This document shows positions 9,301 to 38,626 of a stretch of DNA of 64,000 nucleotides, one piece after another; position 1 is the stretch's first letter; each line of letters begins with the position of its first letter. The notes under the pieces are model-generated. The model did no database searches, was not told the DNA's origin, and saw only the letters and a list, made by a program, of their open reading frames with translations. The stretch comes from Patellaria atrata CBS 101060 (Eukaryota). The translations under genes were made by a program, and so were the position numbers. The stretch lies in NCBI GenBank assembly GCA_010093705.1, contig MU006100.1:470745-534744 (forward strand), read 5' to 3'.

Positions 9301-11441
9301 TCTTTACGTTTGTGGCTCAGTTTCTGTATATGAGACTGTCATGTCGGGTATCCGGAAAGCTATCTATCAATACTCAGCTGCTACGTCTGATACTGCTGAC
9401 GCTATCCTGGCATCCGCATTCGCTGAAAGACGATTTATGCTAGGTAAGTGATTGATTCGGTCTCTCCTATCCGAATACGCTAATATAAGTAGATATCTTT
9501 ATGACACCACGTCCTATGTCCTATAAGATGCCGACAATTTCTTTATCGCAACTCGCAAGGAATACGGGTCACAGAAAGGGCTCTAGAATGTGGATCGGTG
9601 TCCATGGAGGAGTGTACGATGTAACTGACTTCCTCGACATACACCCCGGTGGTACACTCATTGTAGCTGCAAGTGCTGGACTGGACGCAACCAAAACATT
9701 CGATGATCTTGCACATACCTCCAATCCTGAGGTCTCCAGTCTCCTTTCAAAATACTTCATCGGACATCTTGCCACCAAACCGGATTTCCGCTCGCCTGAG
9801 TTGAGCGATTTGTACAATGTTTTTTATCAGTACCTAAGGACCTGTGTTGAGAGCCTAACAACGTTATTCTTTGAAGCGAACCATATCTTAGAAAATTCGA
9901 AGGTTTGGTTTCAAGGCGGATTGCTCAATATAGGAGGTGTTCGGAAGTTCTACCAGTTTCAGAGTCGATTGATGCAAAATGGTTTCTCTACGCTTTTCGG
10001 TGGCAAGCTCCAGGAAATATACCTCAAACTTTCCTTCACACTCGCTAGCGCAGGAGCACCAAATGTCCAACTGCCGGATGTCATTGGTACAATCACTCGA
10101 GCTCAGTCATCCCACGATGCCGCTATAGCCTCGAAAGAGATTTCTCAGATAGGCCAGTTCGTGTGCAACAGCAGCAAAACCGCACAGTTCCATGAGAACG
10201 GTATCATCGAATATGCTCAAGCCGTCACTGAGATGGACATCACTTTTTTGGAACACATCCGTGATGAAGTCTGTATGGGAATGGATGCATTCGACTCCTT
10301 AGCATCGATGGAAGAATCCAGTTCGCGCAAACAAGTGAAGCTATCCGCTTTCCTCCTCACTGTGCTTGAGCGCATTGCCAAACGTCTAGAGTCTTTCTAT
10401 GCATCTCTCGCTCAACAATCAATATATAGACCCGAGATAGAACTCAACCCGGCGCGTTCCCGCTGGAATATGCTACGGCGCAAGATCTTCGACGGGTCCC
10501 TCTTCATCCTTGCACAGGTTCCCCAACTCGACCATCACGACACTCGCGGCTCAATTTTCCGGCCCGGTGCTACGTCCACCGATGTTGATTTCACTCACGT
10601 CTTTGAGAGCGTGCAAAGGGCCCTCCGCGCTGATACCTCGGTCTCCTTTAATGCCATTGCTTCCGAGCCAAAGCGCCTTGCTGATGCTCATACGGCACGT
10701 GCGAACACAAACGCCAGCGCCGCAAGCACGTTCGAGACTCGTGAAAATGCAGCAGCGCTTCGCCAACTTGGCGCTTTCATCTCAGAAAACGCGTCCTCCA
10801 TTCGCCGCCTTAGCCGCATTCCCGCTGCGTACGACTTTGATCAGATCATGGCCGCGTACGGGGAGAAGTCGCCCAGCTCTCCCCACCATGTGCGCACTCG
10901 TTCCGGCCTCAGTTCTACTTCAATGCCGAGACAGAAGGTGCAGACACCGCCTTCCCAACTTTCACCACCGTTGCAGAATGGAACGCTGAACCGAAGGGCT
11001 CCTCCAGCTGAGTCGAGTCCTCCAGCTCCCCTATTTACAAATGAGAATGCCACCACAACAGCTACCACGGCACCAGCACCCCTCCACCGCCGTCAACCAA
11101 CTCCCACCTCATCGCTTCCTCAACCCAAAACTTCACCCCCTCTCCCCATTTTACACAGGCGCGCCCCTCCCTCCACATCCGTAACTTCCGCGTCCCAACC
11201 TCGTCGACAAGGATCCAATGAGTCCATGTCCTCGGCCTACCGTGCGGCGGCGTCCGTGGCTGGGAGCTTGCCAGGCACATTGGTGAGTGGAGGTGCGAAG
11301 GGTAGGGCGATGGGAGTGGGTGGACCGTTTCCAGTCCGAACTTACACGACTGCAGGACAGGGGCCTGGATTAAGGGCATTGAGGTTAGGCGCGGGTACGG
11401 GCCCTGGTGGGATAGAGAGGAAGGTTCAGGTTAGGGAATAG
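6327..11441 (+). CDS. IDO/PrnB-like heme dioxygenase fused to FAD/NAD(P)H reductase and cytochrome b5 (1623 aa)
   Basis: join(6327..6476,6522..7262,7312..7559,7610..8002,8053..9443,9493..11441), all GT-AG introns, frame preserved, 4872 nt. IDO-like motifs: IPRNIAIPL..MGRPLPHLT..YNF, LRRWLP..RAFI, FMGTHRYKV. Reductase motifs: PRTYSIS, GISSGFL, AGGSGIAPFRGF, YVCGS. b5 motif: WIGVHGGVYDVTDFLDIHPGG...DATKTFDDLAH. Confidence 0.9.
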
Positions 11442-12426
11442 GTTAGATGGGTTGAATCTGGATGTGTAGATGTTGAGGTTTTGAGATATATTAGCTACAT
11501 GCGCGGGTTTGATATAGACTTTTCGTTCAACTTAAATTGCTTTTTACGTGTTATGTCATCATGGTGATCGTAATTGGCGCTCATTTGTGCGCATGTCGAA
11601 GAATCCACTCTCTTCCCAGCGCTAAAAACTATGACCGCGATGTTCTCCGATTTTTCTTTCTCTTCATTTGATGTTTCATGAGAGGTACGAGATTCGCTGT
11701 TGCTGTTCTTTGGTTTATGCTGCTTTATTCCATTCCTTTCGCAGTCCCTTCGCGTTTATACACTCTGAGCGATTCGTAACCGTCCATTCATAGAGCTCTG
11801 TGTAAATGATCCACATCGGATTCCCTAGGAAGGGAAGAACAGCTATGCAGCCAAGTTTTATGAAAGCATTTCGTAGCGCGTACGGGGTTATGTAGAGTGT
11901 TCTCTCTGCGGGTTTACAGGATGGTTTATTGCGGAGTTGATATAGGAGTGTTCGTAAGCTATTTGGCTTAGATGAAGTTAAATCGCGACTCGCAGGGCCT
12001 AGGAAGTGGAATGTGATCTAGGTGACTGTGAGGTTTAAAGGTCAGATTTTCAACTGTTTTTGGTTGTAAGATGCGGAAGAATCATGGTTGTCTCAAACAG
12101 TTCGTCACTGGTGTTTTCTGCGAGAGGGTTGTAAACTGGATGGAATCTCAGTGGAATGAGAGCAGGATAGGTATGACGTAGAACCAGCGATTGTCTGGTA
12201 AAAGAGGATTCCCTTAGAGATATATAGATTGCATGGAAACCGCTTAATAAAAACCAACGTTATTTTTGAATGTAGACTTGAAGATTTGCACCCAAGCACT
12301 CAAGAGACACCAACGGTCTTCACGACCTCCCGCAACGTATCCATTCACCCAGATCCCATGACCAAATTCACCAAACACTCTTGCACCTTAAAAACGACTC
12401 CTGCGCAGAATTTTTATAATAACCCA

Positions 12427-12596
12427 GGGCCTGTGGCGTAGTGGTGGGCAACTCACCCACCACACCGATCGGCCGTATACAGCACGTCCTGGGTTCGATC
12501 CTGCGAGGGGGCGAAAAGCCCCCATATCCCCTTCGGGCCCGAAGTTTGAGGGCAGCAGATGTACCACGCTCTCTCGGGGGCGTGGGAACTGTTTTT
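12427..12596 (+). ncRNA. Putative structured Pol III-type ncRNA or tRNA-headed SINE, copy 1
   Basis: A box TGGCGTAGTGG, B box GGTTCGATCC (12492-12501), four hairpins, T-run terminator from 12592; no tRNA acceptor stem found. Confidence 0.6.
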
Positions 12597-13311
12597 AACT
12601 TTTTAATTTTTTTTAATTTTTTTTTCCCGGTCGTAGATTTAAAAGTGCTTTTGTATAGTATCTGTTCTTTTACGAAATTTCTTATGATAGCAGCAGGTTA
12701 GCTTGGTGATTTCCTTTTTTTTTTTGTAAATTAGACGTAAAATAAGAGAAATATCACTCACAAATAGTGTTACGGTTTTTTTCTGTTTGTTTTTTTTTTT
12801 TTTGACTGGGGTAAAAGTCCGGTCATACTAGGGCAGGGAATAGAATTGAGTAATATGATATTATTACCATAGTATGGTGGGCATATATCTCTTCGTTGTA
12901 GTTGCCATAGTTCTAAAAGTAAGAAGATTCAAACAAACTGGAATGATTGGAGTTTGACCCCTCTTTTCTCGAGTGCCGCTGGCAAAAGACTTGGATCCGT
13001 GTTAAACAATCGTACAATGGCCGTAAAATGTCTATTGCAACGGGGGGAATCATAGGGCGAAAGGTTCGTATGAAGAAACAAAGCTGGACAGCATTTCATG
13101 GTTTCGGAAAGAGTATAATAGACGCGAAAAGAGATGTTACCGCGAGAGCAAATTAGAATTTTGACGGACTCATAGGCAAATGTATCGAATAACAGAGCTA
13201 GCAAACGTAACGCGCGAAGACACAGCCAGAGACCCATGATGTCATGCAATGCACATACCCCGGCCTACCCCTTTCCAAAGTCATCTCAAATCATTAACCG
13301 TAAACCTACAA

Positions 13312-16295
<2,984 letters not shown>

Positions 16296-25602: not shown

Positions 25603-26889
25603 TCACAGCCTACTCCCTCCATCCCTCTCTCGCTCCCCTTCCCCCGCAATCTCAACAACCAACTTCCCAAACTGCCTACCGGCCTTCATATCCTCGAACA
25701 AGCCATCGATCTTATCGACATCGAGGCCTTTCACGACGCGGGAGATGACGGGCCGGAGTTTGTGCGTTCGGACGAAGGCGAGCATGGCGGCGAACTCAGC
25801 ACGCGAACCCATGGTCGTGGTACGGATTTCGATGTTTTTGAGCACGGTGGGCATGGAGAGGGTTAGGGAGGGGGATGTCGTCATGCCGTACAGGGATATG
25901 ATGCCGCCGTGCTGGTTGGGGGGGTTAGTTGGGTGTGGGAAGTTTNNNNNNNNNNNNNNNNNNNNNNNNNNNNNNNNNNNNNNNNNNNNNNNNNNNNNNN
26001 NNNNNNNNNNNNNNNNNNNNNNNNNNNNNNNNNNNNNNNNNNNNNNNNNNNNNNNNNNNNNNNNNNNNNNNNNNNNNNNNNNNNNNNNNNNNNNNNNNNN
26101 NNNNNNNNNNNNNNNNNNNNNNNNNNNNNNNNNNNNNNNNNNNNNNNNNNNNNNNNNNNNNNNNNNNNNNNNNNNNNNNNNNNNNNNNNNNNNNNNNNNN
26201 NNNNNNNNNNNNNNNNNNNNNNNNNNNNNNNNNNNNNNNNNNNNNNNNNNNNNNNNNNNNNNNNNNNNNNCAAACACATTCGCCCCGACCCCCACCGCGA
26301 ACAGCACAACCATAAGCGCAACCCCGCCCCCAACACCGGTCACCAACACATTCTTCCCCGCCCCCACATGTCCCGCACACTTCGTGAACAGCGCCCGCCA
26401 CGCCGTCAGCCCCGTAAGCGGCAGCGCCGCGGCTTCCACATCTGACAGATGGCCGGGGACCTCTTCCACCTCGCCCGCCTCTACCACGGCGTATTCCTGT
26501 AGCGTGCCGAGCGGTACGGTGGCCGTGCCCCCGAGAATCCTGTATCCGCCCTCGTCTTCGGGTCCGTCGGGGGAGGAGGCCCAGCCGTAGCCGGGGGTAA
26601 GGACGACGCGTTTCCCGGCCCAGCGTTTTGTGGCCGGGGAGGAGCCGGTGCCGATTACGATGCCGCAGCCGTCGGCGAGGAGGGGGGTGTGGAAGGAGAT
26701 GCGCGGGTAGAGGTTTTGGCGGATGAAGAGGTCGCGATGGTTGAGGGAGGCGGCGGTTAGGCGGATTAGGACGGATGTGGGGCCGAGGGGCGGTATGTGG
26801 AGGGTGGTGCGGTGGAGGGGGTAGTATGTTTTTCCGGGGGGGCCGGGGGGGCCTTGGATTGTGATGCATGTGGAGCGGGTGGGGAGCAT
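25603..26889 (-). CDS. MDR-superfamily (zinc-type ADH / quinone oxidoreductase-like) enzyme, interrupted by assembly gap
   Basis: AASLNHRD, PLLADGCG, AAALPLTGLTAWRAL, VLVTGVGGGVA, GRQFGKLVV; probable start MLPTRS at 26889. Confidence 0.85.
   Translation of the reverse strand: MLPTRSTCITIQGPPGPPGKTYYPLHRTTLHIPPLGPTSVLIRLTAASLNHRDLFIRQNLYPRISFHTPLLADGCGIVIGTGSSPATKRWAGKRVVLTPGYGWASSPDGPEDEGGYRILGGTATVPLGTLQEYAVVEAGEVEEVPGHLSDVEAAALPLTGLTAWRALFTKCAGHVGAGKNVLVTGVGGGVALMVVLFAVGVGANVFXXXXXXXXXXXXXXXXXXXXXXXXXXXXXXXXXXXXXXXXXXXXXXXXXXXXXXXXXXXXXXXXXXXXXXXXXXXXXXXXXXXXXXXXXXXXXXXXXXXXXXXXXXXXXNFPHPTNPPNQHGGIISLYGMTTSPSLTLSMPTVLKNIEIRTTTMGSRAEFAAMLAFVRTHKLRPVISRVVKGLDVDKIDGLFEDMKAGRQFGKLVVEIAGEGERERDGGSRL
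25946..26270. other. Assembly gap (325 N)
   Basis: Run of n characters. Confidence 1.
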
Positions 26890-33999: not shown

Positions 34000-35121
34000 T
34001 ACCTGTGGACAAAGTTCATCTCTAGTGTCCATTCCTCCCTGGTGATGGGTTCCGTCCCGAGAGTCCTATGGGTCCAAATGCATATGAGAAAGTGTCTAAC
34101 AAGGAGTAATCCTCCTGTAAGTCCTGTCCCAAAGTCTTCCTCTCTGGAGACAACAGAGTCGAACTAGAATAATCAAGTATGAGTGTGAGAGTTCGAGCAC
34201 TGACGGATAAGGCCCCTCACGATCGCATCCCATATATAACGATATTCCTCCGTATCTAGATCATTGTTACAGTCCACCGCAAACTCCTTTGAATGATTAA
34301 GTGCTTGATGCGAAGCTGATGACCACATTACATCTACGCAGCTATTGTATAGCTCTTGCTTCTCTGATAATTCAAAGACTTGTTCGCATTTATGAAGTCT
34401 ACTCTCATACTCGCTAGTCCCTTGAACATTAGCATGATGATACTAATTCTTAGGGTAATGTTTGTCTCTGCTGATAATTACCATGCTGGGAATTAGTATT
34501 TTGGATACTTTAAGATCGCCGTCCTTTTGTTTTCCCAAAAGGCTGTATGTACCTCGAATCATCTGCGGATATTTTCCCGTATACAGAAAGCTGTCCGCTC
34601 TCAATCAGCAAAACACAAAGATACTGAATAGGCACGTAGTTTGCGGGACTCACCAGCCATGCAATGATCTGAGGAGCGTGTCCAAAGGGAATCATATGAT
34701 TTTCTCCCACCTCCTCCTCAGAAACCATTTTCAGTTCGAGTGCCTTGAGTGAAAGCATTCCCCAAACGCGCAATAGCCATTCATTCCAGCTTATATCCTT
34801 GAAGGTTTCTCCATGAAAGTGTTAGTGCAATCATTGAAACCCTCTGTAAATTTAGGACCTGACAACACAATTCCGGTGGGGTCCTTCCCCATGAGCGAAT
34901 CTCTGAATTTGTTGTGGGTCATAGAGCTAGATTTGAGAGAGATGAGGTTGTGCGTGCCCTTTCTTTATCGTTTCAGTGAGAGCCAGTTCTCACGTTGGTT
35001 CATTATCATCACCTGAACCATCTTCCGAGCGAAGTAAAGTCTTTGACCGCTGTGTCCTCGACTGCTTTGTCTTCAACTGCTGTGTCTTTGCTCCTTTTGA
35101 AGGTGGTTCTTTCACACCCAT
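34000..35121 (-). pseudogene. Decayed paralog B of the same family
   Basis: FTEGFNDCTNTFME / TFKDISWNEWLLRVWGMLSLKALELKMVSEEEVGENHMIPFGHAPQIIAWLVSP; frameshift near 34810 and upstream stops; boundaries approximate. Confidence 0.6.
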
Positions 35122-36939: not shown

Positions 36940-37702
36940 TTAGAAGATAGGATGTGCGATCGACAGACCCACAACTCTACTCCACAGATTGTGGTATTCA
37001 CGAGTAGAGAGATTCCCATAGGAATCGAGAATAAACTCATGACCTTCTGCCGGTGCCAGCTTTGAAATCCTCATCCAAGCTTCCATAAGAAAGCGGTTCC
37101 GCAGTATTTGTTTGTTTGTCACCTCAAAAGTGTGCTCACACTGATATTGTTTTTCTCTAGAAAGATATCAGCATGGTGACATTACACGGAGTAAATACAT
37201 CTGTAGGGGCTTACCCTTTGGGAGTATAATACGATGGAAACCCCAAGACGAGCCTCTTCCTCTCGTGCCATGAACCTTCAATGAACCTTGTATCCCGAGC
37301 ATCCATTTTGTCATATTTGCAGAGCTTTAATACCCATTAGCTACATCAGATCACATCTATTCAGCGTAGAGGGTCACTTACAAGCCAGTCGATAATTTGG
37401 GGGCAACGTTTGCAAGGAATCATGCCATCCGTGGCAAACTCTGTCTCGTGTACCATTTGTGATTCGAGGGCCTTCAGACTAAGGGTTTCCCAGATCCGCA
37501 ATAACCACTCGCTTCGCTTGGTCTCTTGCACGATCCCTTCCATCAATATACTCGAGCAGTTCTTGAAATGATCTGTGATACCAGAGTCCTTAGACTCGAA
37601 ATCGAATAATCTACTCTGTGCTCGAAAAGGTTTATGTAGAGTGAGAACTCCGTCTTTGTTTGAAAGGACATTGCGAATAAAAGGTTCGCTATCTTGTTCC
37701 AT
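36940..37702 (-). pseudogene. Paralog C of the same family (truncated or decayed)
   Basis: ITDHFKNCSSILMEGIVQETKRSEWLLRIWETLSLKALESQMVHETEFATDGMIPCKRCPQIIDWLVSDP; 3' extent uncertain. Confidence 0.6.
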
Positions 37703-38626
37703 TGGTTGGTTAGGTAGAATCTCGGCTTTGGTTTTTCATCCTCATCATTCTCGATAGGAATTTACAATGGTGTGCATTGTCTATTTGTTTTCACAAGCTT
37801 CCGGAGTGGGTGTAATCTGTCTGGAGCAGGTTTAGAGCTCATAGTAATTACAGCGTTCGGTAGGAAGGAACTGGTCTAAGAACGCGTGAGTGTGTAAGGC
37901 AGTGTCGTTGTTAAACGTTGGAATATGAGGAAGCAGGGACACAAGTCAAAGGGAAATACTAATTTCACGGTACCTGCCGAGATTACAAACAGATTAGATC
38001 TCCCGGGACTCTCTGATTATAGAATATTGATAAGCAAAAGAAATCATGACTATAGAAAACGTAGTGAGCTGTTATAAGAAATAATTTGCGCGAGCATCCT
38101 ACGGTAGAAGTGTCAGCAATCCCTTATCTTCTATACGATTGAGCTCTTGGTACACTTCGGATCCACCTTACACAACAGACCTTCTTGTACAGTAACGTGG
38201 GAAGCCCCTTTGAGAGTGAAAGTACAGGAGGTGAGGATTGTTATGATAGGAGACGTGACATACTTAACGAAGCTGGGACCAGGGACATCTGAACATGAAA
38301 GAATCGAGATTCATCGGGATACTCTTTGACTGAACTCCCTAAGTTGATAATCAAATTGTTCGACGATAGAAGACAACCATTGGAGAGATTTGATGAACTG
38401 GAAAGAATACCTCAAAGCAATTACAAAAAGTGACCTAAACTTCATTCTCCGCGGGTAATATAAGTGTCCCGTCCGTAGACTAGTCTTTTGAACAACGCCC
38501 AAGAAAACTGGACGAACACGAAAAGCTGCCCGTTCTAGAAAGCAGCCACCTATCTACATCAACTCCCAAAGTTTACACATAACACATTAATCAAACAAAA
38601 CTACACGAACATGTTGAAAAGCACTT

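Follow-up and report, generated by a model that had tools for sequence, protein, structure and literature searches.

A dispersed family of putative Pol III type-2 units in Patellaria atrata, possibly an old, poly-T-tailed SINE-like repeat

The unit described here lies in a 64-kb stretch of DNA from Patellaria atrata (the window, meaning the whole stretch analysed), where it occupies part of the ∼2 kb between two convergent genes, namely a cytochrome b5-domain gene and MCM3. The host is a saprobic Dothideomycete; the MCM3 translation matches the entry from Patellaria atrata CBS 101060 at 100%, its next best match is 83% identical, and no close sequenced relative appears among the MCM3 matches listed. 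Elsewhere, the window holds a run of 325 N at 25946-26270, inside GC-rich, probably coding sequence, and a tandem duplication at 1931-2536 with a period of ∼349 bp, which shows up as a 173-nt and a 77-nt repeat family with copies 77-78% identical. The features of the unit (copy 1, 12427-12625 on the plus strand) and of its immediate surroundings are as follows:

ends near 11441: cytochrome b5-domain gene, converging with MCM3 toward copy 1
12408-12426, plus strand: AT-rich stretch GAATTTTTATAATAACCCA directly upstream of copy 1, read in the sequence
12427-12591, plus strand: copy 1 core, 165 nt, 64% GC; predicted body of a Pol III transcript
12434-12444, plus strand: A box TGGCGTAGTGG, overlapping the 5' strand of hairpin 1
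12441-12463, plus strand: hairpin 1, GTGGTGGG / CAACTCA (7-nt loop) / CCCACCAC, from reading and from the fold
12492-12501, plus strand: B box GGTTCGATCC, 47 nt past the A box
12507-12523, plus strand: hairpin 2, GGGGGC-GAAAA-GCCCCC, retained in copy 2 as GAGGGGGG-TTAATG-CCCTC
12531-12544, plus strand: palindrome CTTCGGGCCCGAAG, missing in copy 2 (a 12-column alignment gap)
12556-12591, plus strand: 3' hairpin CAG-ATGTA-CCACGC...GCGTGG-GAA-CTG, directly abutting T5
12592-12625, plus strand: T-rich terminator or tail, T5 AAC T5 AA T8 AA T9, with the first T5 at 12592-12596
ends near 13388, minus strand: MCM3

Copy 1 carries the full set of type-2 Pol III signals, comprising a consensus A box, a B box, and a T5 that begins 91 nt past the B box. 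We take TRGCNNAGTGG to be the consensus form of the A box. The B box GGTTCGATCC has a single exact match in the 64-kb window, strict regular expressions for the A and B boxes find copy 1 alone, and the combined pattern TGGCNNAGTGG-N(30-60)-GGTTCGANNC likewise occurs at one site in the window and in 0/100 dinucleotide shuffles. The AT-rich stretch GAATTTTTATAATAACCCA (12408-12426) may be a TFIIIB-binding or TATA-like region together with a leader.

The core stands out from its flanks in composition, with a GC content of 64%, compared with 42.5% over the preceding 200 nt and 26% over the 200 nt that follow. Its stems are near-perfect (8, 6, 7, and 6 bp), and its predicted RNA fold has a minimum free energy of -76.4 kcal/mol (z=-2.2; 6/200 shuffles equally stable); both the stems and the modestly low folding energy could reflect selection on an RNA. 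The 3' strand of hairpin 1 is part of a block, CCCACCACAC, that is identical in copies 1 and 2, and the last 10 nt of the 3' hairpin together with the T5 (12582-12596, GTGGGAACTGTTTTT) form a 15-nt sequence that is also identical in copy 2. The original prediction, made from the sequence alone, had described a GC-rich unit of ∼165 nt in AT-rich flanks, with an A box, a B box, a series of hairpins, a palindrome, and oligo-T; on reading the sequence, each of these motifs is present at the coordinates given.

A second copy was found on the minus strand by scanning the window for A boxes with two mismatches and then reading the minus strand near 35.8 kb. At two mismatches, the whole window contains 21 A-box matches (11 expected), a count reached by 0/100 shuffles. 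When the unit was searched against the window by blastn at word size 7, the matches were T runs and a single 40-nt stretch at 35640-35604, which is the 3' end of copy 2. The features of copy 2 are listed below:

35792-35604, minus strand: copy 2, more degenerate; full-length and diverged, with its blocks in the order of copy 1
35785-35775, minus strand: A box TGGCCTAATGG
35764-35755, minus strand: block CCCACCACAC
35726-35718, minus strand: degenerate B-box remnant GGTCGAACA
35714-35696, minus strand: G-rich hairpin
35640-35631, minus strand: GTGGGAACTG
35630-35604, minus strand: T tail, T5 CC T5 CC T13

The relationship between the two copies is supported by alignment, by spacing, and by profile searches. 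In a MAFFT alignment of 191 columns, 104 of the 168 ungapped columns are identical (62%), with 23 gap columns, and the core local alignment scores at z=13, a score reached by 0/500 shuffles. The distance from CCCACCACAC to GGGAACTGTTTT is 118 nt in copy 1 and 116 nt in copy 2, and the two-block pattern has exactly two sites in the window, namely the two copies (0/100 shuffles). Further, the 3' block GTGGGAACTGTT occurs in the window only in copies 1 and 2, both copies share the tail layout T5-NN(N)-T5-NN-Tn, and a head covariance model searched without filters scored the copies at 113 and 111.5 bits, with the next best site at 9.3 bits. Neither this model nor an nhmmer profile found a third copy in the 64-kb window; the next nhmmer matches, at 60357-60226 and 23467-23408 (E 0.07 and 0.13), were set aside as coding-like on reading.

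The similarity stops at the edges of the unit. The 120 nt upstream of the copies are not significantly similar (z=1.5; 45/500 shuffles equal), nor are the ∼175 nt downstream similar (z=0.6). Since the core scores at z=13 and the flanks at z=1.5 and 0.6, the unit has sharp ends. Upstream of copy 2, GAATTCTTTCC...CCCAG stands at the place that matches GAATTTTTATAATAACCCA of copy 1. The motif GAATTYTT(ATAAT) was seen at 12408-12420 on the plus strand, ∼19 nt upstream of copy 1, and on the minus strand both at 35813-35805, directly upstream of copy 2, and at 35904-35892, ∼100 nt further; its recurrence is marginal (z=2.8; 21/1000 shuffles equal). The claim that the unit belongs to a dispersed family is hereby confirmed: the family has at least two real copies, the second of which lies at 35792-35604 on the minus strand, is ∼62% identical to the first, and has unrelated flanks.

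Neither copy overlaps the long reading frames examined, copy 2 being located in a stretch (33.3-38.6 kb) without long ORFs. Two shorter ORFs on the minus strand, 34513-34821 and 37364-37735, flank copy 2; they are 61% identical over a shared block of 46 aa (E 1e-17), and no Pfam family is present in either. They may have arisen by duplication in place, or they may form a small gene family that lacks annotation. Upstream of copy 2, also on the minus strand, are two units (∼35960-35870 and ∼36100-36000) with A-box-like sequences, TAGCGTAATGG and TGGTGTATTGG, and T8 ends. We considered these units as further copies and rejected them, as neither has significant similarity to either copy (z -0.3 to 2.8).

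Conservation between the two copies is distributed in blocks. In the head, which reaches from the A box to the G-rich hairpin, 10-13 of every 15 columns are identical (∼70-85%) across most of its length (columns 16-105); the body has 6-8/15, which is near random and almost unalignable; and the 3' end, directly before the further tail, is identical at 15/15 columns. Copy 2 is devoid of the palindrome, of part of hairpin 1, and of the B-box consensus. The copies differ by 24 transitions and 40 transversions, and RIP was ruled out as the source of the divergence because transversions outnumber transitions.

In structure, the copies resemble each other in coarse layout, each folding with a ∼47-nt 5' hairpin followed by a branched 3' domain. 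At the level of individual base pairs, 27/50 pairs of the copy 1 fold can form in copy 2, compared with 14-21/50 in controls in which the partner sequence was slid by 1-3 columns, and 24/48 pairs of the copy 2 fold can form in copy 1, compared with 14-20/48 in the controls. There are two compensatory pairs per direction, one of which changes GGCC/GGCC to GACC/GGTC in the 5' hairpin's closing stem. RNAalifold gives 33 compatible pairs, five of them with both sides changed, which carries little weight given that there are two sequences. The fold of copy 2 is unremarkable (z=-1.2; 19/200 shuffles equally stable). Structural support between the copies, being modestly above the slid-partner controls, is weak, and so is the covariation among copies by which the original prediction had proposed to be judged. 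This low structural constraint makes decaying copies a better fit than a conserved structured RNA.

To place the unit among known RNAs, we compared it with tRNA and Rfam models. ARAGORN found no tRNA in the whole 64-kb window, and none in 12301-12700 when introns of up to 3000 nt were allowed and thresholds were relaxed. Rfam 15 gave no match at the gathering score across the window; at E<=10, the interval 12380-12640 returned four noise matches (E 0.44-6.6), among which were none to tRNA (RF00005), 5S, U6, SRP/7SL, RNase P/MRP, vault, or Y RNA. On reading copy 1, we found no downstream complement of the 5' GGGCCTG, which would be the acceptor 3' strand, and the 3' strand of the T-stem in the tRNA-like part is unpaired; this rules out both an ordinary tRNA gene and one split by an intron. 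Copy 1 does share with tRNA genes an A box, a B box, an oligo-T terminator, and tRNA-like first 19 nt, and it differs from them in having no cloverleaf, boxes 47 nt apart, no acceptor 3' strand, and no match to ARAGORN or to the Rfam tRNA model. The absence of a cloverleaf and of any full tRNA or Rfam match, as well as the exclusion of 5S, U6, SRP, and RNase P, had been anticipated from the sequence and held in these searches, as did the noted lack of an obvious target-site duplication (TSD): exact repeats between the flanks reach at most 7 nt at copy 1 (190/300 shuffles do equally well) and 6 nt at copy 2 (291/300 shuffles equal that). Erosion of TSDs at 38% divergence could be a cause of this absence.

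Relatives outside the window were sought in collections that contain almost no fungal DNA, so the blank obtained there is weak evidence. A pattern scan of metagenomes gave nine loci, all of them bacterial-looking tRNA ends or terminators and unrelated to the unit; viral contigs gave no match to two patterns; and prokaryote genome contigs gave no match to the two-block pattern and four to the head pattern, these being in bacterial records and consisting of the searched motif alone. The open frames of copy 1 were also searched as proteins, with the aim of catching copies annotated as spurious ORFs. The minus frame of the unit had no match, and the plus frame, searched against 1.84 billion representatives, had four at E<=0.001. 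Three of these four were rejected as unrelated repeat proteins. The fourth, P0002, is a 319-aa singleton ORF on a 53,973-bp ENA contig; it is made of ∼60-aa tandem repeats with TTPTKVAQHVLGSILQVMKAPPPP, is identical to the plus frame of copy 1 at 14/24 aa, and shows this resemblance in the part of the copy 1 translation that spans the B box and G-rich hairpin. P0002, which we regard as a weak lead, may be the trace of a related tandem repeat with tRNA boxes in a different organism. Literature searches by sequence string and by topic found no description of the element.

Our verdict, drawn from the motifs and their arrangement, is that both copies appear to belong to a family of Pol III type-2 style units. 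Among the explanations for such a family we favor, with roughly even confidence, an old SINE-like repeat that ends in a poly-T tail, for which we infer transcription, its start site, retroposition, and derivation from a tRNA. The element would be a dispersed unit with a core of ∼165 nt and a T-rich tail of 25-35 nt, present in at least two copies in Patellaria atrata. TFIIIC would bind its A and B boxes and set TFIIIB on the AT-rich DNA immediately upstream, as is established for the two factors at tRNA-type (type-2) Pol III promoters. Transcription by Pol III would begin ∼10-20 bp ahead of the A box and terminate at the first T5, and the product would be a ∼170-nt RNA with a 3' oligo-U, in which the tRNA-like 5' part is predicted to fold as a long hairpin, not a cloverleaf, with the GC hairpins after it. 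The parts would correspond to a SINE layout in which (i) the head bears the promoter, (ii) the body is near-unalignable, and (iii) a 15-nt identical 3' end leads into a tail of poly-T type. Copy 1 would have kept intact promoter and terminator signals, and copy 2 would have decayed.

Several observations speak for a SINE-like repeat. Block order and spacing are alike in the two copies, the boundaries are sharp, conservation is block-wise, and neither copy overlaps the long reading frames examined. According to PMC8825457, tRNA-type SINEs have boxes 25-50 nt apart and a B box 20-500 nt ahead of the tail, which can be poly A, poly T, or low-complexity or simple sequence, and TSDs are an essential SINE feature. 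Copy 1 falls within both ranges with its consensus boxes 47 nt apart and its T5 91 nt past the B box; copy 2 has a degenerate B box and a tail of the same layout. The box spacing and the distance from B box to tail are thus shared with the tRNA-type (SINE2-class) plant SINEs as defined by the SINE-Finder and AnnoSINE criteria in PMC8825457. The unit further shares with SINE2-class SINEs the division into head, body, and tail, a T-rich tail, a length of <200 bp, more than one dispersed copy (two in 64 kb), and unrelated flanks. It differs from them in lacking TSDs at either copy, in the undetectable tRNA homology of its head (no match by ARAGORN, or by any Rfam tRNA model at E<=10), in numbering two copies in the window, in having no known LINE partner, in its fungal host, and in a tail that starts with a functional-looking Pol III terminator.

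Several points count against a SINE-like repeat. Neither copy has a TSD, two copies are present within the 64-kb window, neither Rfam at E<=10 nor ARAGORN detects tRNA homology, and no LINE partner or reverse-transcriptase element was identified among the window ORFs examined. An element that spreads via its own transcript would hardly be expected to have a T-rich tail opening with a Pol III stop, and the T5-NN-T5-NN-Tn layout shared past the first terminator would fit either duplication at the DNA level or selection for fail-safe termination in a real gene. A comparable element is AfuSINE2 of Aspergillus fumigatus, a fungal tRNA-related SINE, which, according to PMC5063351, shares with the unit an ascomycete host, a size of 140-493 bp, A and B boxes, and a 5' region without a cloverleaf, and differs from copy 1, with its consensus boxes and lack of TSDs, in having TSDs of 4-14 bp and degenerate boxes. 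In PMC5063351, candidates were screened for an oligothymidine tract preceded by a 3' sequence unrelated to tRNA; by eye, the unit shows no resemblance to the AfuSINE sequences inspected.

The rival that survives best, which we consider possible and hold with distinctly less confidence, is that copy 1 is a functional Pol III ncRNA gene specific to the lineage and copy 2 its paralogue or pseudogene. The lack of TSDs, the undetectable tRNA homology, a copy number seen as two in the window, and the shared tail layout keep it alive. In its favor, the A box, B box, and terminator of copy 1 are intact and followed by three back-up T runs, its stems are long and perfect within a fold of -76.4 kcal/mol (z=-2.2), and conservation falls on the elements required by a Pol III gene (the boxes and the 3' end next to the terminator). 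The absence of TSDs, the 5' hairpin and branched 3' domain predicted for both copies, and the one compensatory pair in the closing stem of that hairpin point in the same direction. However, about half of the predicted pairs of either copy form in the other, little above the controls, and copy 2, whose fold is unremarkable, no longer has the palindrome, the B-box consensus, or the whole of hairpin 1; this weak structural conservation and the decay of copy 2 argue against an ncRNA gene. The failure to find a relative outside the window also weighs against it, weakly so in view of the collections searched.

Rodent BC1 and 4.5S RNAs have a tRNA-type promoter, are 90-150 nt long, carry a tRNA-like part refolded into a hairpin, and act via bound proteins. 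Copy 1 shares with the BC1 and 4.5SI genes the internal A and B boxes, a predicted extended 5' hairpin, and oligo-T termination; these genes have no sequence relationship to the unit, and the likeness is one of sequence features and predicted fold. We know of no lineage-specific structured Pol III RNA of this kind characterized in filamentous ascomycetes, and our literature searches for one found none. A more specific proposal, which we put forward as rather doubtful, is that copy 1 would be an active, Dothideomycete-specific Pol III RNA gene of ∼170 nt, a counterpart of BC1/4.5S, with CCCACCACAC and GUGGGAACUG-oligoU as binding sites and copy 2 as a decaying paralogue. Such a gene would have originated from a tRNA-type promoter, its tRNA-like part would have refolded into the long hairpin, and the CCCACCACAC and GUGGGAACUG-oligoU blocks would bind protein or RNA. 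The boxes of 4.5SI and 4.5SH are mentioned in PMC10137851.

An unlikely explanation is that the copies are untranscribed relics, both of them decayed remains of an ancient duplication or pseudogene related to tRNA, in which the boxes would persist by descent alone and the hairpins would be by-products of GC content. The lack of tRNA or Rfam identity, the degenerate B box of copy 2, the weak structural conservation between the copies, and a divergence of 38% with transversions (40) in excess of transitions (24), which looks like saturation, are all in line with such relics. Neutral decay of this kind, however, would not be expected to leave copy 1 with boxes that match the consensus exactly through C61, at the proper spacing and with a T5 after them, nor a 15-nt 3' block identical between copies that are 62% identical overall. 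Lastly, a real tRNA gene that was broken by an insertion or has an unusual intron is highly improbable, for although the first 19 nt resemble an acceptor and the start of a D-arm, and GTCCTGGGTTCGATCC resembles a variable loop and T-arm (both judged by eye), ARAGORN found nothing with introns to 3000 nt and relaxed scoring, the acceptor strand GGGCCTG has no complement, the T-stem 3' strand is unpaired on reading, and copy 2 shows the identical non-tRNA layout.

Returning to the SINE-like repeat that we favor, the proposal in the original prediction of either a Pol III ncRNA gene or a tRNA-headed SINE stands in part: both still lead, there is no tRNA or Rfam match, and the family is confirmed, but the term "tRNA-headed" draws on the boxes and on the 5' end as judged by eye, and no tRNA model matches the unit. 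We regard the find as modest and not surprising: an old SINE-like repeat or else a small RNA gene specific to the lineage is most likely. Because the element is absent from Rfam and from the output of tRNA finders, it will escape standard annotation pipelines. If it is SINE-like, it would add a poly-T-tailed element with a tRNA-type promoter to the short list of fungal SINEs and would be worth masking or annotating in Dothideomycete genomes. Units with tRNA promoters can recruit TFIIIC and may serve as boundary elements close to genes, as do yeast tRNA genes and ETC sites. If copy 1 is an expressed gene, it would provide filamentous fungi with a rare case of a Pol III RNA confined to one lineage.
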